From Paracoccaceae bacterium (lineage in GTDB: Bacteria > Pseudomonadota > Alphaproteobacteria > Rhodobacterales > Rhodobacteraceae): a DNA stretch of 64,000 nt. A program made the translations under genes and the position numbers. The notes under the pieces were generated by a model. The model made no database searches. It saw only the letters and a program-made list of their open reading frames with translations, and was not told the DNA's origin. The stretch spans positions 152,434 to 216,433 of the forward strand of contig JASBTX010000038.1 of NCBI GenBank assembly GCA_030148225.1, in the 5' to 3' direction. This document shows, piece by piece, positions 13,906 through 38,546 of the stretch (within the stretch, counting starts at the first letter, position 1; each line of letters opens with the position of its first letter).

Positions 13906-13924
13906 TCCGCAGGATTGGGGCAGG

Positions 13925-15148
13925 CTAGCCGGCCCGGACCATCAGCGATTTTAACCCGTGAAAGTGGTAGACATCTGCGTATCGGGGCGTTTCTGCCAGT
14001 GCAAGGCCCGGCATTCGTTGAAAAAGGATGGGCAGCGCGATCTGCAGTTCCAGCCTTGCCAGCGGCGCGCCGACACAGAAATGCGGACCGGCCCCAAAGC
14101 TCAGATTTTGCCCGGCGGCGCGGTCCGGGCGGAACATGGCGGGCGCATCAAACCGGTCCGGGTCGCGATTGGCCGCCGCCAGCAGCGCCGCGACCTGATC
14201 ACCCCGCCGGAACCGGTGACCGGCAATCTCGACATCCGCGTAGACCCAGCGGGTAAACATATGCAGCGGCGGGTCAAAGCGCAGTATTTCCTCGACCGTG
14301 TTCACCGGATCAGCGATCAGCGCGTCAACCGCGTGCTGCCCGATCAGCGTGGCAACGCCATTTCCCATCGTGTGCACCGTCGCCTCGTGCCCCGCGTTCA
14401 ACAGCAGGATGCAGGTCGTGATCAGCTCATCCTCGCTCAGCCGGTCGCCATCCATTTCGGCGGCGATGAGTTCGGATATCAGATCATCGCCCGGGTGCGC
14501 GCGCCGCGTGTCGACATAGCCGCGCATGAAGGCCACGAATGCCTCGGTTGCGCTGACGGCGCGATCCTCATCGGCGCGGGTGCGCCCGGCCTGATACATG
14601 CCGACCATTGCGTTTGACCATGCCAGCAGGTCTTCGGCCATCTCTTCGGGGACGCCCAGCAGGCGGGCAATGACGATGACGGGGATTTTCTGCGCATAAT
14701 GCGGCAACAGATCAAATTCACCGGCCGGGAAGCGGTCGATCAGGTCGTGGCAGAGCGCGTCGATCTCGGCACCCATCCCCGCGATCCGGCGCGAGGTGAA
14801 GGCGCGCAAGACAAGGCCGCGCAGCCGCGTGTGGCGCGGCGCCTCCAGTTCCAGCATCGAATGCGCCTCGACCGCGTAAAAGGGCGCCAGATGCGCCGGA
14901 ATTTGAGGGGCAAACTCGGGCGGCGCCTCGCGCCCCAGCGCCCTGTTCTTCAGAATATCCGACGTGGCTGCATAGCCCACGGCCACGGGCATGTCATAGT
15001 CCTCCCACCTCAGGACCGGCCCGAGGCTGCGCATCGCCTCGTAGGCGGGATAAGGATCCTGAACAAATGCCGGAGCGGTGGGGTTTTGGCGAAAGGATTG
15101 CAATTCCGTCTCCTGCGGCTTTGCGGGTTTTGCCAACTGGCCAGACAA
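13925..15148 (-). CDS. cytochrome P450
   Basis: Heme-binding loop FGAGPHFCVGAPLARLE and I-helix LLNAGHEAT. Start is uncertain (TTG 15148, or TTG 15103 after AGGAGA). Confidence 0.85.
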   Translation of the reverse strand: MSGQLAKPAKPQETELQSFRQNPTAPAFVQDPYPAYEAMRSLGPVLRWEDYDMPVAVGYAATSDILKNRALGREAPPEFAPQIPAHLAPFYAVEAHSMLELEAPRHTRLRGLVLRAFTSRRIAGMGAEIDALCHDLIDRFPAGEFDLLPHYAQKIPVIVIARLLGVPEEMAEDLLAWSNAMVGMYQAGRTRADEDRAVSATEAFVAFMRGYVDTRRAHPGDDLISELIAAEMDGDRLSEDELITTCILLLNAGHEATVHTMGNGVATLIGQHAVDALIADPVNTVEEILRFDPPLHMFTRWVYADVEIAGHRFRRGDQVAALLAAANRDPDRFDAPAMFRPDRAAGQNLSFGAGPHFCVGAPLARLELQIALPILFQRMPGLALAETPRYADVYHFHGLKSLMVRAG

Positions 15149-24497: not shown

Positions 24498-24526
24498 GCG
24501 CACGAGACCGCAAAGAGGTTAAAACA

Positions 24527-24560
24527 GACCGCTCCGGCCATCGGAGCGGTCATTTCTTTG
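24527..24560 (+). terminator. rho-independent terminator of lon
   Basis: GACCGCTCCG-gccat-CGGAGCGGTC forms a perfect 10 bp stem, followed by ATTTCTTTG. Confidence 0.8.
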
Positions 24561-24642
24561 CGAATTGCAATGGTTTTTCGACGGGAATTTGAGGATTTTG
24601 TTGGTAAATCTGGGTATATTCTGACAAGATACCACTAAATAT

Positions 24643-25092
24643 ATGAAAAAGAGCGGGGCAGTCATGGCAACTCCTACCGGGAAACCAACCAAGAAGAAGA
24701 CCACGGCGCGCAAGACGCCGGTGCGTGCAACGGCGCGGACGGCGAAGAAAAAGAAAGCCTCTGCCGTGCAGGAGGCGGTGGTCAAGGCGATCACCAAACC
24801 CGACGCGGTTGCGCCGGTGCGGCTGGATGAAAAGATGGTCGCGATCCGCAAGGGCGAGCTGGCCGAACGGATCGCGGTGAAATCGGGCCTGAAAAAGCGC
24901 GACGCCCGGCTGGCAGCCGAGGCGGCGATTTCGGTGATCACCGCTGCACTCGAAGCCGGCGAAACCATCGTGATCCCACAGGTGGCCAAGCTGATGCCGA
25001 TCAAGCGCCGCGCGCTCGCGCAGGGCGCGGTCGTCACCGCCAAGATCCGGATCAAGGGTGCCGCCGATGCCGCGCCGGAGGCAGCGGAATAA
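24643..25092 (+). CDS. HU-like DNA-binding protein with Lys/Thr/Ala-rich N-terminal tail
   Basis: It sits in the position hupB usually occupies downstream of lon. The core KGELAERIAVKSGLKKRDARLAAEAAISVITAALEAGETIVIP resembles HU helices 1-2. The N-terminus PTGKPTKKKTTARKTPVRATARTAKKKK is histone-H1-like. ATG 24664 is an alternative start. Confidence 0.5.
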   Translation: MKKSGAVMATPTGKPTKKKTTARKTPVRATARTAKKKKASAVQEAVVKAITKPDAVAPVRLDEKMVAIRKGELAERIAVKSGLKKRDARLAAEAAISVITAALEAGETIVIPQVAKLMPIKRRALAQGAVVTAKIRIKGAADAAPEAAE

Positions 25093-25225
25093 AGCGCCCC
25101 GCCGTGATTGAAGGGGGTGTGTGTCCGGGCGGCATGGTTCAATCGGATGCCATGCAAAAAAACCTGAAATAATTGCGCCCGCACCCTTGCAGTGGCGCGG
25201 CGGTTTGGGCTAATTCACCGCTGGC

Positions 25226-25301
<76 letters not shown>

Positions 25302-25529: not shown

Positions 25530-26966
25530 TTACGTATCGTTCACGCGCGGCAGCGCGGCCGTGACGAATGGCCGGGGCAGGGCGCGGCGCAATCTGTCGC
25601 CAAGCGCCTCGTCCAGCCGCTGGCGCTGGCCTTCGATCCTGAGTTCGGCACCCGCCCCCACCGAACGCAGCGCCTTGAATTCATGCCGGTTTATCAGATC
25701 GCTCTGGCTCTCTTGGGTGAGGGTGACATTGATCAGGAAGTTTCCGTCACCTGTCGGGCGCGGCGGTGTTTCGGTATCCAGCCGACCCGAGAGCGGACGT
25801 GTCTCCGCCCCCAGCCCCACGATCCGGATCAGAACGCGCCTTTCGGTGTCGAGTGCGGTCAGAAGATCGCCCGGCACCATCGCGGTAACGGCGTAGGGTC
25901 CCTCATGCGAGGCCGATAATTCGATCACCGGCGCATCCTGTTCAAACACCGCGTTGCCGGTCTGGCGGATGCGATAAATCTCTCCGGTGCTTGGCGCGCG
26001 AATCTCGGGGTTGTCCATGAGCACCTGCAATTGCGAGAGCGCCAGCGAGAGCGCGTCAATGTCACTGCTGAGCGCATGTGCTGCCTGCAGATTTTCCGAT
26101 TGCCGGGTGCTTTCGGCGTCGCGCGCGGCTTTTTCGAGGCGTGCGATATCGCCTTCCAGCAGTGATTTGGTCAGTTTCAGGCTCAACCCGGCGGTAACAT
26201 GGCCCAGCCGCGTCTGCAGGGGGCTATCTCCGTCGCGCGCGCGCCGGGCCAGCAAATTGATGCGGCGTTCAATGATGCGAACCTGCCCACCCATCCGGTC
26301 GATATCGGTCTGACGTTGGGCCGCGTCATCGGCAATTCGGGCCGTCATCAGCGCGCAGGATTTGCGCGCGGCCAGAAAGGCAAACCGCAGATCCGGCCCC
26401 GGGTGCGGCTCGGCCATCATGTCCCACGCGGGAATTGCGCTGTCCGCCGTTTCGGTCCGGGCCGGATTATCCGAGAATTCAGCGGATGTGTCATTGCCGG
26501 CCCGGCTGCCGATTAAACTTTCGCCGGTTTCCATATCCTCGGACGCGGCGGTGATCTGCTCGACGCTAATATTGCCTGTCGGCACGTCTCCGACCAAAAG
26601 GCATTCCCGTCTCAGGCGCAGCGCCACGCGCTGTCGGTTGAGAGCAGCGAATTTCTGCCTCAGCGTCGCCTCGTCCAGCAGAAACAGGATATCGCCCGCA
26701 TCCACCCTGTCGCCTTCGTGCACCAGCATCGTGCTGATGCGGGCATATTTGGGCAGGATGACCTGCTGGCGCGCATCCGCGGCCCGGATTTCACCGTTCA
26801 GCGAAAACCGGGACGGCACGGTGGCCTTGCGGATCAACAGCGCAGCCGAACCCAGCAGAACAAGCGCTGCCATGATGCCGAGGATAACCATCGCCGCCAT
26901 GCGCGGGGTGATCCGGGCGCTGCCATGCGCCTGGACGGCGACAGCTTCTGATGGGTTACCGTGCAT
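25530..26966 (-). CDS. HlyD-family membrane-fusion (periplasmic adaptor) protein
   Basis: N-terminal TM helix (MAAMVILGIMAALVLLGSAALLI), a lipoyl-like block (ARISTMLVHEGDRVDAGDILFLLD), a long coiled-coil middle and a beta-barrel end (IRAPSTGEIYRI). Start is uncertain (26966 overlapping the upstream stop, or 26900). Confidence 0.75.
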   Translation of the reverse strand: MHGNPSEAVAVQAHGSARITPRMAAMVILGIMAALVLLGSAALLIRKATVPSRFSLNGEIRAADARQQVILPKYARISTMLVHEGDRVDAGDILFLLDEATLRQKFAALNRQRVALRLRRECLLVGDVPTGNISVEQITAASEDMETGESLIGSRAGNDTSAEFSDNPARTETADSAIPAWDMMAEPHPGPDLRFAFLAARKSCALMTARIADDAAQRQTDIDRMGGQVRIIERRINLLARRARDGDSPLQTRLGHVTAGLSLKLTKSLLEGDIARLEKAARDAESTRQSENLQAAHALSSDIDALSLALSQLQVLMDNPEIRAPSTGEIYRIRQTGNAVFEQDAPVIELSASHEGPYAVTAMVPGDLLTALDTERRVLIRIVGLGAETRPLSGRLDTETPPRPTGDGNFLINVTLTQESQSDLINRHEFKALRSVGAGAELRIEGQRQRLDEALGDRLRRALPRPFVTAALPRVNDT

Positions 26967-28869
26967 CCTGCACCGCGTTGCGCGGTGCCAGCCGCGGATC
27001 ATATGTGGCGATCTTGACGGTGATCACGCGTTCACCGTTCTGCAGATCGTGGTCGAAATGCTGGCTGCCCCTGATGATCTGCGCCAGCGCCGAGCGCGGG
27101 CGGCCGAGCGCGAGGTTTTCGGCATCCTGACGCGCCCTTGCCATTTGCGTGCTGCCGATGGCGGCGCCCCGGTCGCGCATGCGCAATACGCAATGACCCT
27201 TTTGGTTCTTGAAATCGAAGGTCAGCGTCTGTGCCTCACTTCCCGTTATGTCCTGACAGGACAATGCCAGCATTTCACCGGCGATATTGATGACGTTGCG
27301 CCGGTTCTTTTCATCACCTGAGCGGCGGAAATGCGATCTGATCCAGGATTGGAGCGCGTCTTCGGCCTCGAGGGTGCGCTCGGACACGAGGCGCGACCAG
27401 CCCGACAACCTGCGGGCGCGAATGTCATCCGCTGGCCCCGAATCGATCAGCCGCCCCTCCTCGAGGACGATCAGCGTGTCGCACATTTCCAGTAGCGCGC
27501 GATTGTCGGTGGCAACAACAAAGCTGCGCCCGGCGCGGCGTTCGATCTGGATGCGCTGGCAAAGCGCGGCGATCATCGCTTCGTTGGCGCCATCCTCGGG
27601 CCGGTCAAAGAGATAGAGCGCGGGGTTCATCAGAAACGCGCGCGCCAGTCCCAGGGCCTTTTGCCAGGATGTCGGCAAATCGCGCATATCCGGCGCGGCC
27701 AGAATCATCTCGGCGGTTTCGCGGGAAAAGAGCATCTGTTCGAGGATGCGCACCGCCCGGTCGGCCTGGCCCACGCGCTGAAAACAGGTGATGTTGTTCA
27801 TGCCGCTGGCGGCGAAACCGAGCGGGCGTGGGGGGACATGTGCCACCGGCAGCGCCGCTGGTGCGGAAGATCGCCGCCAGAGCGAGCGGCCATCAAAGCG
27901 GACCCCGCCCTCAACCGACATGCCCGTCAGGTCATGCGGTGCGACAATGGCGTCCAAAAGCAGGCTCTTGCCGGCGCCAGCGCCGCCAATGATGCCGGTC
28001 ATCGTGCCCGGCTCGAGCGAGAGGTTTATCGGCCCCAGAATGGTCTGTCCGCCGCGCCGCATGACATTGAGATCGCTGATCTCCAATCCCCGTTCATCCG
28101 CATCAACAAGGCCCGATTCGCGAACGCGCGCATCGGGCCGCGCGCCGTCGCGCCGGTCCAGTGTATCCTGCAGGAACCGGCCAATCATCTCGGACGACGA
28201 GAGCACGAGGAGCAGGCTTGCCGTCATCGCGACGGGTTCCATCACGCCCCGCATGGCCAGAACCCCCGAGATCAGAAGCGTGGCCAGAAATCCGACAGCA
28301 TTGGTCAGATTGCCCAGCGCAGCCTGCCCGGAAACAGGGAGTGCCGGAGTGGCCTGCGCCAGTTCAAATCCGCGCCGGTCACGGCCTGCCAGAATTGATA
28401 CCGCCTCGGCCGGGTTGAAATCCCAGCGGGCACTGGCAATTGTGGCCCGGAACACGGCCAGTATCAGCCCCGCGCGCAGTGCGACCGCGCCCAAAAGGCC
28501 AAGCCCCAGCAGGGGATGGACGAATTCAAGCGTCAGGAATACAAGGACGCCCATGGCGGCGCGCACGGTGTTCTGCACGCGCGTCGTCCCGCCCAGAAAC
28601 CCCGCCATTGCCCGGTCTTGCGTTAGCTCGAGTATCGTCGCGGCAAGTGCCGGCACAAGACCGGCCAGCGCCAGTATCGGCAAAAGCGATGCATCCTGCA
28701 TATCCAGTACAAAGGATTGAAAAAGCAGTGCAACCAGCGCCAGCGAGAGCCAGAGCACCGACGCCAGCGTTCCCAGGACCCAGCTGAAAATCTGCACCCA
28801 TCCCGGCAATGCGCGGTCCTGACAGGGCAGGGGGATTGCGGTATCCTCTTCAGGTGTCGCTTCTGCCAT
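26956..28869 (-). CDS. ABC-exporter-like protein: membrane domain, degenerate NBD and C-terminal GHKL/RsbW-like domain
   Basis: ATG at 28869 is preceded by GGAGGA. About 240 aa are polytopic. Walker A GGAGAGKS is intact, but the signature motif (LPTSW), Walker B catalytic residue (FDRPEDG), Q-loop and H-loop are all substituted. The last ~150 aa follow an anti-sigma-kinase-like pattern (see findings). Confidence 0.7.
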   Translation of the reverse strand: MAEATPEEDTAIPLPCQDRALPGWVQIFSWVLGTLASVLWLSLALVALLFQSFVLDMQDASLLPILALAGLVPALAATILELTQDRAMAGFLGGTTRVQNTVRAAMGVLVFLTLEFVHPLLGLGLLGAVALRAGLILAVFRATIASARWDFNPAEAVSILAGRDRRGFELAQATPALPVSGQAALGNLTNAVGFLATLLISGVLAMRGVMEPVAMTASLLLVLSSSEMIGRFLQDTLDRRDGARPDARVRESGLVDADERGLEISDLNVMRRGGQTILGPINLSLEPGTMTGIIGGAGAGKSLLLDAIVAPHDLTGMSVEGGVRFDGRSLWRRSSAPAALPVAHVPPRPLGFAASGMNNITCFQRVGQADRAVRILEQMLFSRETAEMILAAPDMRDLPTSWQKALGLARAFLMNPALYLFDRPEDGANEAMIAALCQRIQIERRAGRSFVVATDNRALLEMCDTLIVLEEGRLIDSGPADDIRARRLSGWSRLVSERTLEAEDALQSWIRSHFRRSGDEKNRRNVINIAGEMLALSCQDITGSEAQTLTFDFKNQKGHCVLRMRDRGAAIGSTQMARARQDAENLALGRPRSALAQIIRGSQHFDHDLQNGERVITVKIATYDPRLAPRNAVQDAR

Positions 28870-29067
28870 GAATCCTCCGATTTGGCCCGAAAATCCCCAA
28901 ACGGGACCAGCCGACTTTCACCGATAGGGGCAGAGCGTAAATTTTTGGTTTCGCGGGTCTCGCCGGTCAAAAGGCGTGGGCAAAGGGACGCAATCGTTTC
29001 AAATTTATCGGTTAGAGGGATTTTAACCCCACCCCGCCTAGATCGGCGCAGGTCTGGGACGGGGAGC

Positions 29068-30771
29068 ATGGAAAAAAACCAAATTGAAACCGAAAGGCCG
29101 GCACGGCGTACGGCGGGCTCTGCCGGGTTTTTGGCATTGGGGGCTTTGGCGCTGATAATTGCACTGGCTGCCGGGATCGGACAGATCGCGCGCGGCATGT
29201 TGCTGGCCACGGAAGAGGATATCGATCCGATCATTGCCGGCAGTTCCGAGGATGACATCCCGGCGCTGATGCGCGGCAACCGCCAGAAAGTGACCACCAG
29301 CATGGTCTATCGCGACGAGGAACCGGTACAGAAACCGCCACGCATGTGCGAAATGCCACCGGATTATTTCAATGCCATCAATAGCGCGGAACGCCCCGAG
29401 ATTGGCTATACACGGCGCAATGGTTACGTGCGCCCCTATACCCCCCGGCGGGGCTTTCTGACCGAGCGCGAGATGCGCGCCGCCAAGGTCGCCTGGCATT
29501 ATTTCGAGAAATTCACCCAACCCGATACGGGCCTGGCCAATTCGGTTGGTAATTTCCCCTCGACCACGCTCTGGGACACGGCCTCGTATATTTCCGGGAT
29601 GGTCGCGGCATATGAGCTCTGCCTGATCGAAAAAACCGAGTTTGATGATCGCATCTTTCGCCTGTTAACGACCGTCAAAGGGCTGAAACTCTTCAGAAAA
29701 GAACTGCCAAACAAGGTTTATCACACCAAGACCGGTGCGCAGGTCGACTATACCAACAAGCCCGGTGAAATCGGGTTTTCGGCGCTGGATATCGGGCGGT
29801 TCCTTGTCTGGATGCGTATCCTCAAGAACCGCTATCCCTATCTGGGCAACACGATCGATTCCGTGCTGCTGAAATGGGATTATTCCAATGTGATCGACCC
29901 TCAGGGCCTGCTTGTCGGCGCCTATGTCGACAGCGAAACGAATGAGACGAAATACGCGCAAGAGGGGCGGCTGGGATACGAGGAATATGCCGCCAAGGGC
30001 TTTGCGCTCTGGGGTTTCCGACCGCTTCTCGCGCATCGGGCCGAACCTTTTCTGACAGCCAGTATCTTTGGCGTACAGGTCCCCTATGACGGGCGCGATC
30101 CGCGTATTTTCCATTCGCAGAACTACGTTGTCACCGAATCCTATCTGCTCGACGGGCTCGAGCTGGATTTCGATCTGCCCCATGATGACAGTTCGGGGGA
30201 TCAGGTCCATTCGGATGGCTGGCGCGCCGAGTTTGCCGATCGCATCTACCGTGTCCAGGAGGCGCGCTATCGCAATACCGGCTTTCTGACCGCGCGCTCT
30301 GAACACAACGTCAAAGGGCCGCCATATTTCACCTATGACACCATCTTTTCAGATGGTTATCCGTGGAACACGGTCACACCCCGGGGCGATTACTCTCCCG
30401 ATCATGCGGCCATTGCCTCCAAGGCGGCAATGGGGCTCTGGTCGCTTTGGGATACGCCATATACGCAGCAGCTCTTTGATGCGGTGATCGAGCTTTATAA
30501 CCCTGAAAACGGCATCTACGAGGGGCTCTACGAGCGCGGGCAGGGCAAGATCGAAATCTATACCGCCAATAATAACGGCATCATTCTGGCGGCACTCTTG
30601 CACAAGGTCCAGGGCAAGATCCTGACGCCGCATACCGGCGGGCTCGAGGTCTGGTACACGGCCTTTCGCGATCAGGACGCACGCGAGCGCAAGAACCTGC
30701 CCGATCCGCCATTGCGAGAAGACTGGCTTCCCGCACTCAGACACACGGTCCAAACAGAGGCAGATTTCTGA
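29068..30771 (+). CDS. membrane-anchored DUF3131-like protein (putative glucan-binding/glycoside-hydrolase-like), paralog 1
   Basis: ATG after GGGGAG with an N-terminal TM anchor (FLALGALALIIALAAGIG). Blocks are shared with the 32213..33544 product (A.WHYFE..TQP.TG..NSV..FPSTTLWD; LPNK.Y; DIGRFL; QEGRLGYE.YAA). The DUF3131 assignment is from memory. Confidence 0.6.
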   Translation: MEKNQIETERPARRTAGSAGFLALGALALIIALAAGIGQIARGMLLATEEDIDPIIAGSSEDDIPALMRGNRQKVTTSMVYRDEEPVQKPPRMCEMPPDYFNAINSAERPEIGYTRRNGYVRPYTPRRGFLTEREMRAAKVAWHYFEKFTQPDTGLANSVGNFPSTTLWDTASYISGMVAAYELCLIEKTEFDDRIFRLLTTVKGLKLFRKELPNKVYHTKTGAQVDYTNKPGEIGFSALDIGRFLVWMRILKNRYPYLGNTIDSVLLKWDYSNVIDPQGLLVGAYVDSETNETKYAQEGRLGYEEYAAKGFALWGFRPLLAHRAEPFLTASIFGVQVPYDGRDPRIFHSQNYVVTESYLLDGLELDFDLPHDDSSGDQVHSDGWRAEFADRIYRVQEARYRNTGFLTARSEHNVKGPPYFTYDTIFSDGYPWNTVTPRGDYSPDHAAIASKAAMGLWSLWDTPYTQQLFDAVIELYNPENGIYEGLYERGQGKIEIYTANNNGIILAALLHKVQGKILTPHTGGLEVWYTAFRDQDARERKNLPDPPLREDWLPALRHTVQTEADF

Positions 30772-32141
30772 TGAAACAATTCCTGATCACCACCGCCATC
30801 GCGACCTTGCCCCTGCTTGGTCTGGCACCGTTCACCGCCACGGCCCAGTCGACAACCACCGATTTCAGCCCCGAAAACGCCATCCTCGATACATCGATCC
30901 TCTTTGCTGTCGGCGCGCGCGAGGCGCGTCAGGCATTGCGCAGCGCCTTTGGCTGGGAGATGTTTCAGGAAGGCCTTGTCGAAGGTGTGTATTTTCGTTT
31001 TGATCCAGATGGTTACGCGCGTTTCGCACCGACGCCGCGGCTTGATAGCGACGTCTTCGAGGTTATCTGCCGCCCCCGCACGCGTGTCTGCGAGGCCCGC
31101 AAAGAGGGGCTTGGCGTCTTTCTCGACAGCCGGGGCCGGGTTCAGCTCAGGCTCGAACAATATGTGCCGGGTGACCGCGTCTTCATATCCGAGGGGGTGA
31201 GCGATCTGGAATTGCCCGAGCGCGTGCTTCAGCCGCTGGATGCGCGCTTCGAGGCGCTCTTGTCGACTGGCGGGGAACTGGCGGTGCGGCGCGAGAATGC
31301 GCCCGTCACATCCGCGTCGCTGGTTGGGTTCGCGGCTGTCGTCGCCTATCTGCGCTGGATCAATGCCGGGCAGGACTATACCGTGCTGCCGCGCGACTGG
31401 CCGGTGCCGAACAGCATCGCCGGGGAAACGATCACGCGCACGCCGGAATGGACGTCTTTTACCGGCCGCGACCCCAACCCGGACGGGCGGCAGGTTGCGC
31501 TCGAAGGTGCGCAGGAACTGACCACCGAGATCGAGTTTCTGCGCAAGACGCTCGAGGCGCAGCGCAACGATCAGGAACCCCTGGCTGAGCAGGGGGCCAT
31601 CGCCTTTGATCGCCCATCCGAGCAGATCAGAGAGGGCTTTGTCACCGACAATTCGGCCATGGTCGACCTTGCCTCGCGGGTGACGCGCCTTGAATATGGG
31701 CTGGCTGATCTGCGCACCGAGATCGAGCGCAAGCTGCAATCACTGGAACTGCAGTTGCGGCTGGACGGTCAGGCGGGTGACACCCCTGCCATACCCTCTG
31801 ACGTCCCGATCCCCGATAATACGGATAAGGCGGTTCCCGCGCTCTCCGCCGCCGAAACCGTGCTTGGCTCGGCACCCGCCGAATTGTCACAGCTGGCGGC
31901 ACTTATGGAGATGTTGCAGCAGAACAATGACGTGAGCGACAGCATCATCCCGGTATCGCCCGCGAAGGACGCGATGAACGACCGGATATCGGAACGCTTG
32001 CTCTCGATCATCCTCGAAGAACTGGATCAGCCGCTGGGTGCTGCCCCGGCTGAGGCGCAACCCGCGCAGAATATTGTACCGCGCAACAGCGACTACCAGA
32101 AACTTTCCGACTATCTGAGCGGCCTGACCCAAGGGCAATGA
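30771..32141 (+). CDS. secreted hypothetical protein with coiled-coil segment
   Basis: The start overlaps the upstream stop (TGATG). It has a signal peptide (MKQFLITTAIATLPLLGLAPFTATAQS) and a central heptad-like region (VTRLEYGLADLRTEIERKLQSLELQLRL). No family recognised. Confidence 0.6.
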   Translation: MKQFLITTAIATLPLLGLAPFTATAQSTTTDFSPENAILDTSILFAVGAREARQALRSAFGWEMFQEGLVEGVYFRFDPDGYARFAPTPRLDSDVFEVICRPRTRVCEARKEGLGVFLDSRGRVQLRLEQYVPGDRVFISEGVSDLELPERVLQPLDARFEALLSTGGELAVRRENAPVTSASLVGFAAVVAYLRWINAGQDYTVLPRDWPVPNSIAGETITRTPEWTSFTGRDPNPDGRQVALEGAQELTTEIEFLRKTLEAQRNDQEPLAEQGAIAFDRPSEQIREGFVTDNSAMVDLASRVTRLEYGLADLRTEIERKLQSLELQLRLDGQAGDTPAIPSDVPIPDNTDKAVPALSAAETVLGSAPAELSQLAALMEMLQQNNDVSDSIIPVSPAKDAMNDRISERLLSIILEELDQPLGAAPAEAQPAQNIVPRNSDYQKLSDYLSGLTQGQ

Positions 32142-32212
32142 GGCCCGGTTTTTTGCAATTCCCCACCCCGGCATGAAGGCAGGCTTTGCACACGGGCCGG
32201 ACCGTCGGCACC

Positions 32213-33544
32213 TCAGTTCTCGGTTTGGTTGCTATTCCGGGTTCTGCGCTTCAGAAACGGACCGAACTGGCGATAATGCAGCGCCTCGAGGATGACGGCG
32301 TTTGTATTCAGGCTGAGCGCCGCGTTGATCTGCCCGTCAGCCTCGTAGATACCGCCCGCCCAGCCACGCGCCGGGTTCTCCAGCGGCGCGATTTCGGCCA
32401 TCAACCGGGTGGTATAGGCGGTCGACAGTAGCGCATGCCAGGCAAATACCGATTTCGTGCTCAATGTCCTGAGCCCGGGATAAAGGGTGCCGACCTCATC
32501 GATCACGGCCCAGTCCTGCCCGTTGGCAAAGACCGAACTATAGAGGAAATAGGGTGCCCGGTCGATGTGGTCTTCCGACACCATCAGGGCGCGCCCTGTC
32601 CTCTCTCCCTCTGCCGCCTGTGCCTCGTAAATTCGCATGGCGGGCAGGCTCATCTCGGTCCCGGCGCCGAATTCCAGCAGCGACAGCACATATGGCTCGC
32701 TCAATATGGGTGTGATCGCGCCGAAATCGGCGTAACGACGCCGATCCGTGGCGACCTCGCGCCCCGAAATGCGGCGCCACCGGATCTTGTCTGCTGCCCG
32801 GATCGCCTGGCTGGTATCGATCCCGTAAAGCGACAGCGCGCGCGCGGCATATTGCTCATAGCCGAGCCGCCCTTCCTGCAGGCGGCGCCACGTGCCGTCC
32901 TCGCGCGCGGCACCCATCAGATCGCCGTCGCGGACAAGATCATCCAGCACCCATGCATCTGTGACGGCGGCGATCTCGGCGGCCAGTTCCGGTGCCTGCC
33001 GCCCAAGCGCCGACAGTGCGGCCAGAAACCGTCCGATATCCAGCACCGACCAGCCGATCCCGTCCGCGGCCGCGTTGTTCAGATAGTCCGTCTGGGTAAG
33101 GGTCAGCGTGTTATAGGCCTTGTTCGGCAGCCGCCCTTCAAAAAGCGGCAATGCCGCCGTGCTGCGCAGGAATTGCCGCGCCCTGTCCAGAAACGCCGCG
33201 TCGCCGATCAGGTCCAGTCTGCGCGCGGCGATGAGCGCAAAGACATAGGCCCCCTGATCCCAGAGTGTCGAGGATGGAAACCCGTCCACCGCGTTTACCC
33301 AGCCGGTTTCGGGCTGGGTGTTGCGCTCGATATACCGCCAGGCCGTTCTGGCGGCGCGCAATTCGTTGGCGGTCAGCGGGCGCTGCACCAGAGCGGCGAA
33401 ATCGCGGGTCGCCTCGGCGTAGCCATCCAGTTCAGAGATGCGCGAGAGCGGCCGGGACACGGCGGTATCCAACCCCAGAGCAAGGCCCGCCGCGCCGACG
33501 AGACCCGCCAAAAATATCAGGTTTGACACGTATTTCGGGCGCAT
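32213..33544 (-). CDS. DUF3131-like protein, paralog 2 (signal/anchor plus periplasmic domain)
   Basis: ATG 33544 is preceded by AGAGGGA and lies 4 nt after the GT2 stop. N-terminus MRPKYVSNLIFLAGLVGAAGLALG. It is clearly paralogous to the 29068..30771 product. Confidence 0.65.
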   Translation of the reverse strand: MRPKYVSNLIFLAGLVGAAGLALGLDTAVSRPLSRISELDGYAEATRDFAALVQRPLTANELRAARTAWRYIERNTQPETGWVNAVDGFPSSTLWDQGAYVFALIAARRLDLIGDAAFLDRARQFLRSTAALPLFEGRLPNKAYNTLTLTQTDYLNNAAADGIGWSVLDIGRFLAALSALGRQAPELAAEIAAVTDAWVLDDLVRDGDLMGAAREDGTWRRLQEGRLGYEQYAARALSLYGIDTSQAIRAADKIRWRRISGREVATDRRRYADFGAITPILSEPYVLSLLEFGAGTEMSLPAMRIYEAQAAEGERTGRALMVSEDHIDRAPYFLYSSVFANGQDWAVIDEVGTLYPGLRTLSTKSVFAWHALLSTAYTTRLMAEIAPLENPARGWAGGIYEADGQINAALSLNTNAVILEALHYRQFGPFLKRRTRNSNQTEN

Positions 33545-33548
33545 GGCG

Positions 33549-35261
33549 TTATCCCTCTGTCGCATGAGCAGTGCAGGCACCCACCCCGTGCGGCGGGCGC
33601 CAGAATCCGGCAAGGATCGGGGCGGCCAGCGCATAGCTGTTCCAACCGATCCAGAATGTATTGACCAAGACCAGCGTCGCATCCAGCGTGCCGGGCCAGA
33701 GCCAGAGACGAAGCAACGCCCAGATCACGGCGGCAAATCCGGCGCCGATCAGGGCCAGATGCAGCCGGCAATAGCGGAGCGACGCGGCCCCGCCGGGGGT
33801 TTTCGGTGTCGGTGCAAAACGGATCTCGCGCCCCCGCAGAACCAGCCAGAGCGCGCGCAGATTGATCTGAAGTGCAGCCAGGTTCTGGCGGGTACCATAG
33901 GTCGGATCATGGCCCCAGCAGCCGACGATCAGCGCCAGCTCATTGACCACCAGCAGCGGAATGAGCCGCATAAAAAACTCGGTCGAATAGGCGGAAACCG
34001 GGGCGATACCCGTCACCAGCGTCAAGATCGGCGCAAGAAGGAGCACCAGCACCCAGACAATCGAGAGATATGAGGAGAACGTGGCCAGATAATGCAGCTT
34101 GATCCGCCAAGGCATGGTGCGGCACATCAGCAGGTTGTGGCGCAGCATGATATCGAATGTGCCACCGGCATATTTAAGCTTTTGCCCGGCCCAGGCACGC
34201 AGGCTCCATGGTGAGAGCATCCTGCACTCGATCCGGGGGTGATAGACCGACCGCCAGTGCCGCGACGATGCGCCATGCAGCCGGATCGAGGTCAGGATAT
34301 CCTCGGATACATGATAGCAAAACGGGCGGAGATCCGCGGCCTGCGAAGCTGAACTGCCGGCATATTTGCGTGTGGCAAGCGCGGCCTCGAAAAGCGCCTC
34401 CGTTCGGTGCAGAGAGCCCGCGCCGCAGCAAAACGAGGCACCGTTGCGGTTGCGCCGTCGCTGGATGATGTCGAAAAACAACCCGGGATCGGCCTGAAAC
34501 GGATCGGCCCGGCCAGACAGCCATTGGCGAAACGATGTCCGCCGCCCGGGTTCGGGAATGTCGTAAAACCAGTGCGGCGTCTGAACCCATGCCACGCGCG
34601 CATCGCGGAAATAGCCCAATGTATTTTGCAGGAAAGCCGGGAAAAGCCGGGTGTCAGCATCGCAGATCACCGCGAAATCGGCGTCCGAGTGAAAGAGACC
34701 ATTCTTGAGATTCCCGGCCTTGAAACCGGTATTCTGCCGCCGCGCGACATAGCCTGCGCCCTCCTGTCGGGCGATCTCGGCCATCGCGGGGCGGGCGCCA
34801 TCATCGAGCACTGTGATGCGCAGGGCCGTGCCCGCAGGCGGGCGGACAGCCGCCGCATCCCGGATACTGAGGCGCACGAGTTCCGGGCTCTCGTCAAAGG
34901 TGGCGATGAAAATCTCCACCCGGACAGGCCCATCGCCTGCCAGATGCAGATCGGCGCGCTGCGCGGGCGGGGCTGGCGCGGGCGTGTCCGCGCTTGCCCA
35001 GATGTCGTGAAAAAAGAGCAGCGTTGCCAGATAGGCCATGGTCTCGGCGCTGAGCACGATCACCGAAAAGATCGGTGCCTCGGGGTTGATCGAGGCCGTC
35101 CAGCGCCAGCCAAGATACCACGCGCCAAGCCCGATGGTCAGCGCGGCCAGGAACTGCCAGAGCGCCTCGCGCAGGGGGCTTTCTGCCACCGGTTCGGGGG
35201 GGCAGCGATCCTCGTAAGCGTCAAAGTAGAATGCGGGCATGCGGGCCTGACTATCCGGCAC
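33549..35261 (-). CDS. processive family-2 glycosyltransferase, cellulose/curdlan-synthase-like, no PilZ domain
   Basis: Multi-TM protein with GT2 blocks: VLDDGAR, ICDADTRL, FCCGAGSLHRTEAL, SEDILTSIRLH, and QKLKYAGG where QxxRW is expected. Start is GTG 35261 or ATG 35240. Confidence 0.8.
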   Translation of the reverse strand: MPDSQARMPAFYFDAYEDRCPPEPVAESPLREALWQFLAALTIGLGAWYLGWRWTASINPEAPIFSVIVLSAETMAYLATLLFFHDIWASADTPAPAPPAQRADLHLAGDGPVRVEIFIATFDESPELVRLSIRDAAAVRPPAGTALRITVLDDGARPAMAEIARQEGAGYVARRQNTGFKAGNLKNGLFHSDADFAVICDADTRLFPAFLQNTLGYFRDARVAWVQTPHWFYDIPEPGRRTSFRQWLSGRADPFQADPGLFFDIIQRRRNRNGASFCCGAGSLHRTEALFEAALATRKYAGSSASQAADLRPFCYHVSEDILTSIRLHGASSRHWRSVYHPRIECRMLSPWSLRAWAGQKLKYAGGTFDIMLRHNLLMCRTMPWRIKLHYLATFSSYLSIVWVLVLLLAPILTLVTGIAPVSAYSTEFFMRLIPLLVVNELALIVGCWGHDPTYGTRQNLAALQINLRALWLVLRGREIRFAPTPKTPGGAASLRYCRLHLALIGAGFAAVIWALLRLWLWPGTLDATLVLVNTFWIGWNSYALAAPILAGFWRPPHGVGACTAHATEG

Positions 35262-36729
35262 GCAAGAGGGCAGGGGTGACAGCGATATCTTGCGGTGCGG
35301 GCGCGGTGCGTGGGCCTTGGGCGGTGGTCAGCGCCGTCTCTTCGGTTGCGGGTACGGCGGGGTAGATGCCCGAAATGCTCCAGTCATTGCTGATGATCTG
35401 ATCACAGTGTATCGCGCCCGTCTCGATTGCCGTGCCGGGCAGGATCACGCTTGCCCTGATCGAGCTGCGGGCGGGAATGGTTGTATTCGCTCCGATCACC
35501 ACGGGCCCGGTGATGTGGGCGCCGGGTGCGATATCGACACCTTCGCCCACCCAGATCGGCCCGTGAAAATTGCGCCGTTTCCCGATCAGGGTCAGCCGCG
35601 CCGCGCCGGGGCCGACAAATGCCGTCTGGCCGGGCGGCACCGCGCGCAGTGCGGCGATGTTTTCACGAAAGAAATCAAGGGGAGTGCCGATATCCCGCCA
35701 GTCGAAACCGGCGCTCCAGACGCAGATTTTGCCGCCTTGGGCCATCACCGCCGGAATGAGGTCACGGGCGATATCCTGCCCGGCGGCGGGGCCGATCGCG
35801 TTCAGCACCCCAGGCGACATCACATAGACCCCGATATTGGCCAGCCGCGAGCGGGCCTCTGCCGGGTCCGGCTTTTCCTGAAATCCCGTGACGGTGCCGC
35901 AAGGCGTGGCGGCGATGATCCCGTATTTCGACACGTCGCATTCCGCCACCTCCCGCGCGGCGATGGTGATCTCTGCCCCGCTTGCCTGATGTGCATCCAT
36001 GAGGGCGGCAAGGTCAGGATCGACCAGCGCATCGCCGCAAAAGACGAAGAACGGCGCGTCGAAACAGCTGAGCGCGGATTGCATCCGGCGAAGTGTCGAG
36101 GCCGAGCCCAGCGGTTCGTCAATCCATTCCCCGTCCCGATAGGCACCCTCGTTGAGATATGTCATGCGGATGTTCTGCCCGCGCCCGCTGCCGAAATAGT
36201 CGTGGATCTGCGGGCCCAGATAGCCCGGATTGGTCAGGATATCGCGCACACCGAACCGGGCCAGATGATCCAGCTGGTGATGCAGGATCGGGCGGCCAAG
36301 GATGGGCAGCATCGGTTTGGGATAACGAAGCGTCAGGGGGCGGCACCGCGTTCCCTTGCCCGCCGCCAACAGCACCGCCCGCCGCCCCGCCAGCCGGTGA
36401 CGACGGCCCCAAGGTGAGGTCAGCGCAGCCGATTTGGTGGCAAAATACCGAAGGCTCTCTATCAGCTCTGACCGTCTGAGCCGGTCTGCCACGCCGTCGC
36501 GGGCACCGAAAAAACCGGTCTGGGGGCGGCTGGCATGCAACTCAGCCAGCGCCGCCAGCCCGCCAAAGTTTATTGTGCGCACGCCCGACAGATCCAGAAG
36601 CGCCGCGCGCTGCCCGACATCGTACTCCGAAAGCGCGTTCTGCAATTCGCTCAGGGCATTGGCGCGCAGCATACGGGCGCTGACGCGGAATACGGCCAGA
36701 TCGCCATATCGTTCGATTTGGGTCATCAT
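35251..36729 (-). CDS. STAS domain fused to an NDP-sugar pyrophosphorylase with C-terminal left-handed beta-helix
   Basis: The start ATGATG overlaps the upstream stop (ATGA). Residues 1-~105 have an anti-sigma-antagonist-like layout. This is followed by LLAAGKGTRCRPLTLRYPKPMLPI (GxGTRxxPLT motif) and hexapeptide-like repeats near the C-terminus. The 95-codon upstream extension in the track is antisense-overlap noise. Confidence 0.75.
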   Translation of the reverse strand: MMTQIERYGDLAVFRVSARMLRANALSELQNALSEYDVGQRAALLDLSGVRTINFGGLAALAELHASRPQTGFFGARDGVADRLRRSELIESLRYFATKSAALTSPWGRRHRLAGRRAVLLAAGKGTRCRPLTLRYPKPMLPILGRPILHHQLDHLARFGVRDILTNPGYLGPQIHDYFGSGRGQNIRMTYLNEGAYRDGEWIDEPLGSASTLRRMQSALSCFDAPFFVFCGDALVDPDLAALMDAHQASGAEITIAAREVAECDVSKYGIIAATPCGTVTGFQEKPDPAEARSRLANIGVYVMSPGVLNAIGPAAGQDIARDLIPAVMAQGGKICVWSAGFDWRDIGTPLDFFRENIAALRAVPPGQTAFVGPGAARLTLIGKRRNFHGPIWVGEGVDIAPGAHITGPVVIGANTTIPARSSIRASVILPGTAIETGAIHCDQIISNDWSISGIYPAVPATEETALTTAQGPRTAPAPQDIAVTPALLRAG

Positions 36730-37883
36730 GGTTTGGGGCTCCGGATTGTTGGACGGCGATAGGGGATCAGGCGACCGGGATCGAACCGGGGGCGGGGGCC
36801 CAGACCGATGGTCCATGCCATCGTCGGCCAGCGCCCGATCAACCAGACAAATCCCGATGTCGCCAGCAGCACGAAAACGATCTTGGTCAGTACGAATGGC
36901 CCGGGGTGCAGCGCCAGCCCGGCCAGTCCGATTTCGGCCAGATCCATGAAAACCGGATGCGTGAGGTAGATGCCGAAACTGTAGGGCGCGAGCCGCGACA
37001 GCAGCACAGGCCATTTCCTGTCCGCCAGCAAAAGGCAGATCAGGAACAGGATCACCGGCATGATGAAATCGGCCCAGTAGGCGGGCGTGTAGTTATATTG
37101 CCAGTCACCCGCCAGTGCGACGCGGTAGGTATAGATGAGCTTGATCAGAAAGAGGCCAAGGCCAAGATAGATCACGACGCTGACCCATTGTCTGGCAACC
37201 GCGCCGGTGGGCCGCATCCGGTAAAGCCCCAGACAGGCACCCGCCGCCATGCCATAGCCCAGATAGGTAAAAAGTTTGATCCCTCGTACGAGGTAGTCAA
37301 AGCCGTCAAGCCACTGAAGTTCCGACCAGATAAACAGATCGGCCTCGCGCTTGATCAGCAGGCTGGGGATCAGGATCAGCCCCAGCCATGGATTGGCTAC
37401 CGCCAGCCGGAAGAGCGGATAGGCCAGCACCAGAGCAAAGAGGGTCGGGATGAAGTGCATGTGATATTTCACGGCCCCCAGCAGCAGATATTCCGCCCAC
37501 GCGGCGGGGCTGCGCATCTCGGCGATGGCCGAGGGCAGATAGCCAAAGCTCGTTGCCTTGATCAGGTTCCAGAACGCAAAGAACAGAGTCCAGAAGAGAA
37601 ACGGCACCAAAAGCCGCGCCGCCTGTTCGCGAATGATTTCACCATAGCTGCGCGGACGCCGGTCGAGCGCCATCAGCAACAGAAAGAGCGATATGATGAT
37701 GAAAAGCTCGGTCCGCGCGGTATAGACCACGACCCGGATCAGCAGGGGGACCAGACGCTCGGACGGGGTGGCATCGGGGAAGGGCTGGCCGGTCGGGTCG
37801 GCGGTGGCATGCAGCCCCACCATCGACACGCCCGCAATCAGGCGCAGGGCATCCAGCCAGATCAATCTCGAATGTTCGCGCAC
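36726..37883 (-). CDS. acyltransferase-3 family membrane protein (OpgC/OafA-like O-acyl/succinyl transferase)
   Basis: About 10 TM helices, N-terminal RLIWLDALRLIAGVSMVGLH and C-terminal SFGIYLTHP. GTG 37883 is preceded by GGAGG with a 5 nt spacer. The track start (TTG 37958) is less likely. Confidence 0.75.
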   Translation of the reverse strand: MREHSRLIWLDALRLIAGVSMVGLHATADPTGQPFPDATPSERLVPLLIRVVVYTARTELFIIISLFLLLMALDRRPRSYGEIIREQAARLLVPFLFWTLFFAFWNLIKATSFGYLPSAIAEMRSPAAWAEYLLLGAVKYHMHFIPTLFALVLAYPLFRLAVANPWLGLILIPSLLIKREADLFIWSELQWLDGFDYLVRGIKLFTYLGYGMAAGACLGLYRMRPTGAVARQWVSVVIYLGLGLFLIKLIYTYRVALAGDWQYNYTPAYWADFIMPVILFLICLLLADRKWPVLLSRLAPYSFGIYLTHPVFMDLAEIGLAGLALHPGPFVLTKIVFVLLATSGFVWLIGRWPTMAWTIGLGPRPRFDPGRLIPYRRPTIRSPKP

Positions 37884-38045
37884 CGCCGCCTCCGTCGTTG
37901 TCACGACTAGGGACGGCAAAGTCAAAAAATTGGTTAACCGGGGCGGCGTTTTGCACAAGAAAATTTTTATCCACCGGCGCGGGCTGCTTTTACGAATTCT
38001 TATCGCCTTCCGGCGCAGTCTTGCCGCAGATCAAAGGAGGTGGTG

Positions 38046-38546
38046 ATGCGGGCGGTGTTGATGGCGGTAGGATTATTCTGGGCAACGGCCCTGGGGGCGC
38101 AGGTCAGTGATGATACCTGCCGCGTGGTGGCGCTGCAGCTCGATATCGATCCGTCAAAATGTGATGCGCCCGCGTCGGAAACTCCGGCAACATCCACCCC
38201 CGCCGAACGCGATTATCGCATCCATTTCCCAGAAGGATCGATTATTCTGGTCGATGAGTACCGGCGTCATCTGGATATGCTGGTCGGGCTTCTGCGCACG
38301 GAATTGCTGCATGACACCTGCCTCAGACTGGTGGGTCATAGCGATGCCACGGGCAAGGCCGCGGCAAATCAGAAACTCTCGGTCGCGCGTGCAGATGCGG
38401 TCAAGGCCTATATTGTTGAGCAATATCCCGAAGTCGCACCGCGTGTCGAAACCGCCGGGTTGGGCGATACCCTGCCGCTGGCGGGTTTTTCGGCGCGTGA
38501 TCCCTTTAACAGGCGGGTCGAGATTTTTGCCCGCCGCTGCCTTTGA
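38046..38546 (+). CDS. OmpA-like (peptidoglycan-associating) domain protein, secreted
   Basis: AAAGGAGG lies 5 nt before the ATG. Signal peptide MRAVLMAVGLFWATALGAQV. OmpA_C-like block LVGHSDATGKAAANQKLSVARADAVKAYI...NRRVEI. Confidence 0.7.
   Translation: MRAVLMAVGLFWATALGAQVSDDTCRVVALQLDIDPSKCDAPASETPATSTPAERDYRIHFPEGSIILVDEYRRHLDMLVGLLRTELLHDTCLRLVGHSDATGKAAANQKLSVARADAVKAYIVEQYPEVAPRVETAGLGDTLPLAGFSARDPFNRRVEIFARRCL

Follow-up and report, generated by a model that had tools for sequence, protein, structure and literature searches.

A candidate beta-glucan pathway in Roseobacter-group bacteria combining a BcsA-like GT2 with DUF3131 proteins of the SGL-clan fold

What polymer would be made by a locus in which a cellulose-synthase-like glycosyltransferase of family GT2 is found with two paralogous proteins of the domain family DUF3131, and what would the DUF3131 proteins do to it? 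We examined this question for nine genes at positions 25530-38546 of a 64-kb window (the whole stretch of 64,000 nucleotides analyzed here, positions 152,434 to 216,433 of contig JASBTX010000038.1, Paracoccaceae bacterium assembly GCA_030148225.1). The genes form three transcription units plus a divergent OmpA-like gene, and encode DUF3131 paralogs 1 and 2, the GT2, a nucleoside diphosphate (NDP)-sugar pyrophosphorylase with a STAS-like N-terminus, an acyltransferase-3 protein, an ATP-binding cassette (ABC)-like protein, a membrane fusion protein (MFP), a secreted protein of 456 amino acids (aa) and the OmpA-like protein. The conserved heart of the system is a distinct BcsA-like GT2 together with one to four periplasmic enzymes of the SGL clan. 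From the gene content, folds, homologies and neighborhood conservation we infer a sugar, a linkage, catalysis, a step order and accessory roles: the locus would be a synthase-dependent pathway for an O-acylated beta-glucan on which the DUF3131 proteins act in the periplasm as glycanases or transglycosylases, with beta-1,2 as the most likely linkage. We put the probability of this reading at roughly 45%.

Fold and relatives of the DUF3131 proteins

Both paralogs match PF11329 over model positions 1-367, with 388.5 and 403.1 bits against a cut-off of 20.3, and are 35% identical to each other. Hydropathy gives each a single N-terminal membrane helix, an arrangement that would place the catalytic domains in the periplasm. 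In paralog 1 a transmembrane (TM) segment at aa 14-47 is followed by a linker of about 80-110 aa and then by a predicted periplasmic domain of the (alpha/alpha)6 type. A preliminary description of the locus, made from the sequence letters, had proposed a membrane-anchored DUF3131-like protein and a secreted coiled-coil protein, and the hydropathy analysis agrees with this topology. The start of paralog 2, and with it the length of 443 aa, is fixed by a 100%-identical database protein. Its AlphaFold2 (AF2) model, built on an alignment of 63 sequences, has a predicted local distance difference test score (pLDDT) of 94.2 and a predicted template modeling score (pTM) of 0.90.

When this model was compared with the PDB using Foldseek, ranks 1-19 were all beta-1,2-glucan enzymes (E value 5e-11 to 4e-6, template modeling score about 0.6). 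Among them were GH144 enzymes (4qt9, 3eu8, 5gzh/5gzk, 4gl3, 5z06 and 8xul), GH192 (8xuj), GH194 (8xuk), fungal GH162 (6imu), the GH189 cyclisation domain (8wy1) and whole Cgs (8rf0, 8rf9). Cellobiose 2-epimerases, glucoamylases and BcsZ, which are six-hairpin enzymes as well, ranked lower, at E values of 7e-5 or weaker. By its modeled fold DUF3131 is an (alpha/alpha)6 barrel of the SGL clan (clan GH-S), all top matches lying within the clan, a membership that was absent from the preliminary description. The stand-alone clan members known so far serve catabolism as glucanases, in contrast to the synthase-linked DUF3131. A 2025 survey of the clan (PMC12102758) does not list DUF3131 among its groups, and all biochemically characterized SGL-clan families act on beta-1,2-glucan (PMC12102758, PMC10834661).

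At the level of sequence, phmmer with a single DUF3131 protein found no match in the PDB. Profiles of 12 or 64 DUF3131 proteins matched 8wy1 (E value 1.4e-5) and the Agrobacterium Cgs 8rf9, with no match to the GH144, GH162, GH192 or GH194 entries of the PDB. An hhalign comparison with five Cgs cyclisation domains from plasmid-borne genes gave 95% probability, confined to aa 46-151 (about 105 N-terminal residues); the global mode was disrupted by the GH189 insertion and the local mode aligned the N-terminus alone. Reciprocally, the Pfam DUF3131 model matches the N-terminal 90-120 or so residues of a Rhizobium Cgs domain at 18.7 bits, and the N-terminus of a stand-alone archaeal 'glucoamylase' from Haladaptatus at 24.8 bits, above the cut-off, while the C-terminal halves of both are PF10091 (Glycoamylase). 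Since a DUF3131 N-terminal half and a PF10091 C-terminal half occur in the same proteins, the two Pfam families appear to describe halves or variants of one fold.

Six acidic residues, D169, E224, E230, D267, E291 and E324 in the numbering of paralog 2, are 92-98% conserved among 64 diverse members (acidic residues counted). Both paralogs keep all six, paralog 1 keeping E401 as well, and because of this both are probably active enzymes. The S-x-x-D-x-G-x-L motif containing D169 aligns with VDSGN of GH189. The catalytic glutamates of GH189 (E1356 and E1442 in TiCGS) are separated by 86 residues and belong to the motifs DLLASE and WGxSE (PMC11842490), and E224 and E324 may correspond to them; the likenesses of QEGRL to ASExRL and of VSED to GISE are suggestive only. 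DUF3131 falls outside GH189 itself: about 105 N-terminal residues align, the long alpha4-alpha5 insertion is absent and the equivalence of the catalytic glutamates is non-significant. The residues that define the clan, a Glu acting as general acid, a Phe and a Tyr, are E239, F286 and Y367 of XcSGL (PMC12102758). DUF3131 conserves E224/E230, F333/Y335 and Y377, and its C-terminal half gives no significant alignment to clan members. No functional study of DUF3131 or of the GT2 clade described below was found in the literature searched (most subscription journals lay outside it), where DUF3131 is mentioned just as an entry in gene tables or gene blocks.

The GT2 clade and its recurring neighbors

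The GT2 aligns with the BcsA proteins of E. coli and Rhodobacter through the catalytic and channel-forming region (aa 38-546; 7lby, E value 3e-30), reaches 150 bits against the CelA model TIGR03030, whose cut-off is 699, and ends without a PilZ domain. Its start is either GTG 35261 or ATG 35240. The motifs DDG, KAGN and CDAD and the catalytic Asp in HVSED are kept, while FFCGS is replaced by FCCGAGS, TED by (HV)SED and QxxRW by Q(K/R)xKY (QKLKY in the window). These substitutions are invariant in 120 Rhodobacterales orthologs, hold in all 77 loci of other orders, and are also present in Pantoea, Salmonella, Pseudooceanicola and Sphingobium. Plasmid-borne GT2s are 40-43% identical inside this clade versus at most 30% (about 28%) to BcsA, BgsA and CelA-type enzymes. 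On these sequence grounds the GT2 belongs to a separate BcsA-like clade.

In order to see how commonly this gene neighborhood is found, one genome per species was scanned, giving at least 596 DUF3131 loci; neighborhood counts were taken from the best 80 of these. The parts list had been described as unusual; it is not peculiar to this genome, as the nine-gene block is common to many Roseobacter-group genera and DUF3131 loci occur in at least 596 species-level genomes. A GT2 of the clade was present in 79 of the 80 loci, and a paralog-2-type DUF3131 gene started no more than 300 nt downstream of it on the same strand in 74; two to four DUF3131 genes were found in 49. The remaining genes were less frequent: NTP-transferase in 45 of 80, acyltransferase in 25, OmpA-like in 20 (always divergent upstream of the acyltransferase), the 456-aa gene in 17 and the ABC-like gene in 14. 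Carriers include Roseobacter-group genera, Thiothrix, Leucothrix, Vibrio, Photobacterium, Aliivibrio, Budvicia and Bacteroidota, and the core spans Alpha- and Gammaproteobacteria, Bacteroidota and cyanobacteria, in many cases accompanied by STAS/SpoIIE regulators. Rhodobacterales bacterium HTCC2150 has the same nine genes in the same relative order and orientation amid unrelated flanking genes, and the full block is also present in 14-20 other Roseobacter-group loci. The arrangement is more than chance, since the same nine genes recur in other genomes with order and orientation kept.

Several of the loci are on plasmids. In Salmonella, one side of the plasmid locus carries an OpgC-like acyltransferase, a hypothetical gene, a SpoIIE phosphatase, a STAS gene and an anti-sigma-type kinase, and the divergent side carries the GT2, three DUF3131 genes, a globin, a hybrid response regulator and a GH2 gene. 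Pantoea stewartii pDSJ10 has an anti-sigma-type kinase (annotated 'ATP-binding protein'), an IS66 insertion, a SpoIIE phosphatase and a hypothetical gene on one side, with no annotated STAS or OpgC gene at the locus, and the GT2, three DUF3131 genes, a globin, a response regulator and a GH2 gene on the divergent side. These enterobacterial layouts match an uncharacterized accessory block of Klebsiella pneumoniae that has been linked to an ecological gradient (PMC12974863). DUF3131, GT2 and SpoIIE/STAS genes are also found on a Pseudooceanicola plasmid, where an acyltransferase and an anti-sigma-type kinase are added, and on a Nostoc plasmid, where a PIG-L deacetylase stands instead. Divergent DUF3131 genes in Nostoc, Mesorhizobium and Sulfitobacter likewise adjoin GT2 genes.

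As a side observation, the globin, response regulator and GH2 genes lie directly 3' of the three DUF3131 genes in both Pantoea stewartii pDSJ10 and the Salmonella Rubislaw plasmid, and in Pseudooceanicola a heme-NO-binding protein and a kinase are encoded upstream of the module. The globin genes of the enterobacteria and the heme-NO-binding protein of Pseudooceanicola hint at gas or redox sensing as an input to the module.

Gene layout and accessory proteins

The nine genes, both divergent regions and the tRNA-Val lie where the preliminary description had placed them, with the intergenic intervals exact to the base, and its domain calls hold in Pfam and NCBIfam searches of each product, weakly so for STAS and the MFP. 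The features are as follows.

25226..25301 (+): tRNA-Val, anticodon TAC (ARAGORN); left edge of the locus
25530..27002 (-): HlyD-type MFP adaptor; TIGR01843 47.5 bits, HlyD_3 E value 7e-4; one N-terminal TM helix
26956..28869 (-): ABC-like membrane protein; ABC_tran E value 1.7e-10, covering aa 280-424 alone
28870..29067: divergent intergenic region between the ABC/MFP operon and the operon of DUF3131 paralog 1 and the 456-aa gene; ribosome-binding-site (RBS)-like sites at both ends
29068..30771 (+): DUF3131 paralog 1, 567 aa; PF11329 E value 4e-116
30771..32141 (+): secreted 456-aa protein; signal peptide, no Pfam or NCBIfam family
32213..33544 (-): DUF3131 paralog 2, 443 aa; PF11329 E value 1e-120; directly 3' of the GT2 gene
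33549..35261 (-): BcsA-like GT2 without PilZ; CelA TIGR03030 E value 5e-44, BcsA 7lby E value 3e-30
35251..36732 (-): NDP-sugar pyrophosphorylase with STAS-like N-terminus and C-terminal left-handed beta-helix; NTP_transferase E value 2e-36, hexapeptide repeat
36726..37883 (-): acyltransferase-3 membrane protein, 385 aa from GTG 37883; PF01757 E value 2.5e-30
37884..38045: divergent intergenic region between the acyltransferase operon and the OmpA-like gene; RBS-like elements on either side
38046..38546 (+): small secreted OmpA_C-like protein; PF00691 E value 2.7e-11

The first unit reads leftward from the ABC-like gene (28869 to 26956) into the MFP gene (about 26966 to 25530, with ATG 26966 or 26900 as the probable start codon) and is divergent from the second, in which the start of the 456-aa gene overlaps the stop of the gene for DUF3131 paralog 1. 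The third unit is convergent with the second and runs on the minus strand from the acyltransferase (37883-36726) through the pyrophosphorylase (36732-35251) and the GT2 (35261-33549) to DUF3131 paralog 2 (33544-32213); its three junctions either overlap or have a gap of just 4 nt. The OmpA-like gene (38046-38546) is divergent from this four-gene operon. The sequence GGAGGA precedes ATG 28869 (-) and GGGGAG precedes ATG 29068 (+), and Shine-Dalgarno-like sequences also stand ahead of GTG 37883 (-) and ATG 38046 (+). Region 28870..29067 holds one sigma-70-like match, 28970..28941 (-), which is a consensus match alone. The GC content dips to 0.57 at 29001-31000, over DUF3131 paralog 1, from about 0.62-0.64 in the surroundings and is otherwise unremarkable. 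In Roseobacter loci no other gene of the block is as well conserved as paralog 1 (72-78% identity).

Housekeeping genes make up both flanks, with an amino-acid ABC importer, tgt and lon on the left and a YbbP/YbbA-like ABC transporter and a GDSL lipase on the right. A putative 221-aa open reading frame (ORF) at 24519-25184 (-), between lon and the tRNA-Val, has a weak match to DUF2834 (E value 0.008). The tRNA-Val had been presented as a landmark of the locus; the gene is there, and its adjacency has no shown significance, is not conserved and has left no tRNA-derived repeat, as no second copy of the tRNA-Val 3' end was found elsewhere in the window. A genomic island at this tRNA was considered and rejected on the lack of such a repeat, a GC content near that of the surroundings, the housekeeping flanks and the different flanks in HTCC2150.

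The best solved relative of the pyrophosphorylase is 8x7s, deposited as a UTP--glucose-1-phosphate uridylyltransferase (E value 6e-56, 193 bits); the next-best solved entries, GDP-mannose enzymes included, reach at most 108 bits (E values 5e-30 to 2.5e-25). The enzyme, which we take to be similar to the cyanobacterial CugP type, probably makes UDP-glucose. The start of its gene overlaps the acyltransferase stop, and the HTCC2150 ortholog has 496 aa. Its N-terminal 115 or so residues match STAS_2 at 19.7 bits and STAS at 17.4 bits, both below the cut-offs, and had no match in the PDB. The proposed STAS fusion is thus sub-threshold in the window copy by Pfam, and is backed by orthologs with a typical STAS segment, (L/V)DLS.V..(I/V)..(S/A)G(L/I)AAL, and by Thiothrix, where a canonical separate STAS ORF (…DLSQVTFMDSSSLGAL…, with DSSS) lies just upstream of the pyrophosphorylase gene. 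STAS is therefore fused to the enzyme in Roseobacter-group loci and encoded as a separate upstream ORF in Thiothrix. Some fused orthologs have a putative phospho-Ser (TQSG, ARSG, TKSG), where the window copy has NFGG, in agreement with there being no kinase or phosphatase genes at this locus. The acyltransferase, whose gene heads the four-gene operon, contains about 10 hydrophobic segments and has Roseobacter orthologs that are 50-55% identical; BLASTP found no similarity to E. coli OpgC (E value 6.4).

The ABC-like protein has about 4-5 TM segments in aa 1-210, a nucleotide-binding domain (NBD) at aa 260-490 and a C-terminal domain at aa 490-637. The closest solved relatives of the NBD are ABCB-type exporters (E value 1e-15, distant). 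Walker A (GGAGAGKS) is intact, LSGGQ is LPTSW, and the DE of Walker B is DR ('hhhhDRPE'); the Walker B Glu is Arg in all 15 sequences, and DRPE is kept in 14 of 14 Roseobacter orthologs. Because the same substitutions occur in all 14, the NBD is by its sequence a conserved non-canonical domain rather than a decayed one. With Walker A alone intact and a hydrophobic region of about 210 aa, the protein does not qualify as a canonical ABC exporter or as part of a type I ABC-MFP pair. An export role as a canonical ATPase is doubtful given the loss of the Walker B Glu in every sequence examined. The C-terminal domain (about 150 aa) matched no family, and its interpretation as an RsbW-like partner of STAS was dropped for want of Pfam support. 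The MFP matches RND_mfp (37.6 bits) and TIGR01843 below the cut-offs and has a TM segment at aa 30-62. Its likeness to HlyD is weak but consistent; the HTCC2150 counterpart has a weak BSH_YknX match, and conservation is poor (24% identity).

The 456-aa protein, described earlier as of coiled-coil type, begins with a signal peptide (AxA-type, ...ATAQS) and consists of a conserved beta-rich domain at about aa 65-200 and a variable helical C-terminal part, in which AF2 gives long helices. The pLDDT is 89-97 over aa 70-200 and low elsewhere, and Foldseek with the beta-domain model found nothing in the PDB below an E value of 0.3. Its 303 homologs are all annotated 'hypothetical', and every one with a named organism is from Rhodobacterales. 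The OmpA-like protein has a signal-like N-terminus, no lipobox and an OmpA_C domain of the peptidoglycan-binding type.

Candidate pathway, known systems and rival readings

The preliminary proposal of a biosynthetic polysaccharide locus with its own NDP-sugar enzyme, acyltransferase and MFP/ABC-like pair is borne out, glucan being the most probable polymer because of the affinities of the pyrophosphorylase and the GT2. In the pathway that we propose, the pyrophosphorylase would make cytoplasmic UDP-glucose, with the STAS-like domain coupling supply or synthase activity to a regulatory partner. The PilZ-less GT2 would polymerize glucose and thread the chain through its own channel to the periplasm, where the two membrane-anchored DUF3131 enzymes would take it, cut it, limit its size and possibly transglycosylate or cyclise it. 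Their action on the nascent periplasmic chain is suggested by topology, by the linkage to the synthase and by analogy with BcsZ, OpgG/OpgD and the GH17 domain of NdvB. The acyltransferase-3 protein would then O-acylate the product, and in the Roseobacter group the 456-aa, OmpA-like and MFP/ABC-like proteins would retain it in the envelope or pass it outward. A beta-1,2 linkage is proposed since every characterized relative of DUF3131 acts on beta-1,2-glucan; it is the most likely linkage and also the weakest step of the chain. The product would then resemble the osmoregulated periplasmic glucans (OPGs) or cyclic glucans of the envelope and would come by a third route beside OpgGH and Cgs. STAS control and MFP/TolC-type release would both have precedents, an Anabaena STAS-fused glycosyltransferase regulated by partner switching (PMC13555669) and BgsA, which works with the MFP BgsB and TolC (PMC13438883).

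The locus had been said to fit none of the bcs, opg, ndv/chv or bgs loci, and this holds: the GT2 is PilZ-less, BLASTP gives no similarity to E. coli OpgH or OpgC, identity to BcsA/BgsA-type synthases is about 28%, and no characterized polysaccharide locus syntenic with the gene set was found. Nor did Pfam and NCBIfam searches find PilZ, GGDEF, Wzx/Wzy/Wza or OpgG domains in the nine products, as had been claimed. With BcsA the GT2 shares a processive membrane architecture, alignable catalytic and channel regions, DDG, KAGN, DxD and the catalytic Asp, and both systems have a dedicated periplasmic (alpha/alpha)6 partner, BcsZ in one and DUF3131 in the other. Beyond this homology of the catalytic core, however, the locus lacks PilZ, the QxxRW, TED and FFCGS motifs, BcsB, BcsC and BcsZ, and the fold family of its partner differs from GH8.

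Cgs is a single cytoplasm-facing protein of about 2,800 aa (GT84-GH189-GH94) that depends on a separate ABC exporter. It resembles the present system in coupling a glucan synthase to an SGL-clan domain, and its GH189 cyclisation domain is a top structural match and the sole solved protein that the DUF3131 profile reaches by sequence. Here, in contrast, a BcsA-like GT2 is accompanied by separate, membrane-anchored periplasmic SGL-like enzymes without the long helical insertion of GH189. The window contains no Cgs-type ORF, and tblastn with a Rhizobium Cgs fragment found no match in the 64 kb.

The OPG pathway offers a likeness of plan, as a membrane GT2 delivers beta-glucan to the periplasm, paralogous periplasmic enzymes process it and an acyltransferase-3-type protein decorates it. 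OpgH has OpgG and OpgD as its partners, enzymes with beta-1,2-glucanase or transglycosylase activity (PMC10514313, PMC11228985); these are GH186 beta-sandwiches, whereas DUF3131 is predicted to be an (alpha/alpha)6 barrel. Membership in the OPG pathway was rejected, as BLASTP gave no OpgH or OpgC similarity and tblastn with E. coli OpgG, OpgH and OpgC found no match in the window.

The cyclic beta-1,3-glucan synthase NdvB of P. aeruginosa combines a PilZ-less BcsA-like GT2 with a periplasmic GH17 domain, for which cleavage and cyclisation of the product have been proposed (PMC10237404). The coupling to a glycoside-hydrolase-type domain is shared; the difference is that the NdvB domain is a fused GH17 TIM barrel, while two or three separate DUF3131 proteins serve here. 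Both bgsBA and crdASC are likewise PilZ-less GT2 glucan synthase loci with few accessory genes, and bgs includes a HlyD-type MFP. In the present locus the MFP sits in another operon, with the ABC-like gene; the best GT2s of Sinorhizobium megaplasmids are 28% identical over 46% of the query, and an Agrobacterium plasmid locus resembling bgsBA has no DUF3131. The preliminary description had likened the GT2 flanked by two paralogous accessory proteins to curdlan crdA-crdS-crdC, a resemblance of layout only. The curdlan genes crdASC encode a GT2 and two essential proteins of unknown function, CrdA and CrdC, and are co-directional (PMC10819609), unlike the two DUF3131 genes here, which lie in convergent operons. 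A tblastn search with DUF3131 over plasmids returned no Agrobacterium record; crd itself is chromosomal.

Several results weigh against the pathway as proposed. The ABC-like NBD is without the catalytic Glu, and both the MFP and the STAS assignments are weak. BLASTP found no similarity between the GT2 and E. coli OpgH, which is the known GT2 beta-1,2-glucan synthase (E value 0.35). The catalytic glutamates of GH189 could not be mapped, the C-terminal halves giving an hhalign probability of 0.06, which is not significant. Membership at the level of fold does not fix substrate specificity, and within the SGL clan no activity on beta-1,2-glucan was seen for Group 4 (PMC12102758). The PIG-L deacetylase in Nostoc hints at non-glucose sugars there. 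Finally, Sphingobium sp. RAC03 pBSY17_1 (8998-15004) carries a GT2 of the same clade (43% identical; motifs QRFKYA, HVSED and FCCGAAS) with no DUF3131 within 9 kb; around it lie genes for a SPOR protein, for BcsS and for a GH16 enzyme, together with a STAS/kinase/SpoIIE module. The GH16 family is typically one of beta-1,3 or beta-1,3-1,4 linkages, and this neighbor, along with a possible relation of CrdA and CrdC to DUF3131, keeps a beta-1,3 or mixed-linkage product alive. The Sphingobium variant could reveal the linkage made by the clade.

It is indeed quite possible, though we lean away from it, that the product is an extracellular biofilm or capsule beta-glucan of another linkage (beta-1,3, mixed beta-1,3/1,4 or beta-1,4), with DUF3131 proteins acting as trimming endoglucanases in the manner of BcsZ and the MFP/ABC pair, probably with a TolC-type channel, expelling the polymer. 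The sole significant characterized relatives of the GT2 are cellulose synthases, BcsZ is also an (alpha/alpha)6 enzyme among the weaker Foldseek matches (E value 3e-4), the Sphingobium GT2 adjoins BcsS and GH16, an MFP is present as in the BgsB/TolC precedent (PMC13438883), and the curdlan operon likewise joins a GT2 to two essential proteins of unknown function (PMC10819609). Set against this, 19 of the 19 top structural relatives of DUF3131, and its sole sequence-level ones, are beta-1,2-glucan enzymes, the acceptor-binding QxxRW of cellulose-type synthases is QxxKY throughout the clade, and PilZ, BcsB and BcsC are lacking. The MFP/ABC pair, present in just 14 of the 80 core loci, is not a general export mechanism, and rhizobial BgsA/CelA-type GT2s are about 28% identical over half of the protein.

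A narrower system made up of the four-gene operon alone, perhaps with DUF3131 paralog 1, would leave the ABC-like, MFP, OmpA-like and 456-aa genes as unrelated neighbors. Their absence from most loci that share the core, the degenerate NBD and the barely conserved MFP would fit; we nevertheless consider it unlikely, as the complete set of nine stays together in at least 14 Roseobacter-group loci and in HTCC2150, where the flanking genes differ, with relative order and orientation kept, and the 456-aa gene overlaps the stop codon of DUF3131 paralog 1. A polymer other than glucan, made by the GT2 from GDP-mannose or a UDP-hexosamine with DUF3131 as its glycanase, is improbable: in NCBIfam the pyrophosphorylase scores best against a mycobacterial mannose-1-phosphate guanylyltransferase model (158 bits, where the cut-off is 440), accompanied by an archaeal GlmU-like model, the Nostoc locus has its PIG-L deacetylase and a GH2 gene closes the enterobacterial loci, but 8x7s far outscores the next-best solved entries, GDP-mannose enzymes among them (193 versus at most 108 bits), the GT2 is nearest to glucan synthases and the SGL clan is glucan-specific wherever tested (PMC12102758).

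These results link DUF3131, which carries no functional annotation, with the fold of the enzymes by which beta-1,2-glucan is cut or cyclised, and show it to be genetically bound to a distinct cellulose-synthase-like clade in at least several hundred species, among them abundant marine Roseobacter-group bacteria and Vibrionaceae, as well as in accessory DNA of Pantoea, Salmonella and Klebsiella. The outcome is a testable function for DUF3131, a candidate CAZy family and candidate STAS control of a processive synthase independent of cyclic di-GMP. If the linkage is not beta-1,2, the module would still be an undescribed synthase-dependent polysaccharide system. In the bacterial envelope, beta-1,2-glucans (OPGs as well as cyclic glucans) are needed for osmoadaptation, symbiosis and virulence, and to our knowledge just two synthetic routes to them are known, Cgs and OpgGH. 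It is a tentative and, taken whole, doubtful proposal that the GT2 with QxxKY and DUF3131 form a third route to a cyclic or size-defined, OPG-like product, with DUF3131 a new clan GH-S family acting on the nascent chain and STAS rather than cyclic di-GMP in control. If the beta-1,2 linkage is true, there would be a third route to beta-1,2-glucans and a new glycoside hydrolase family in clan GH-S, and hundreds of species from marine, plant-associated and enteric settings would have it, among them Vibrio, Photobacterium and Pantoea, as would the accessory DNA of Klebsiella and Salmonella.

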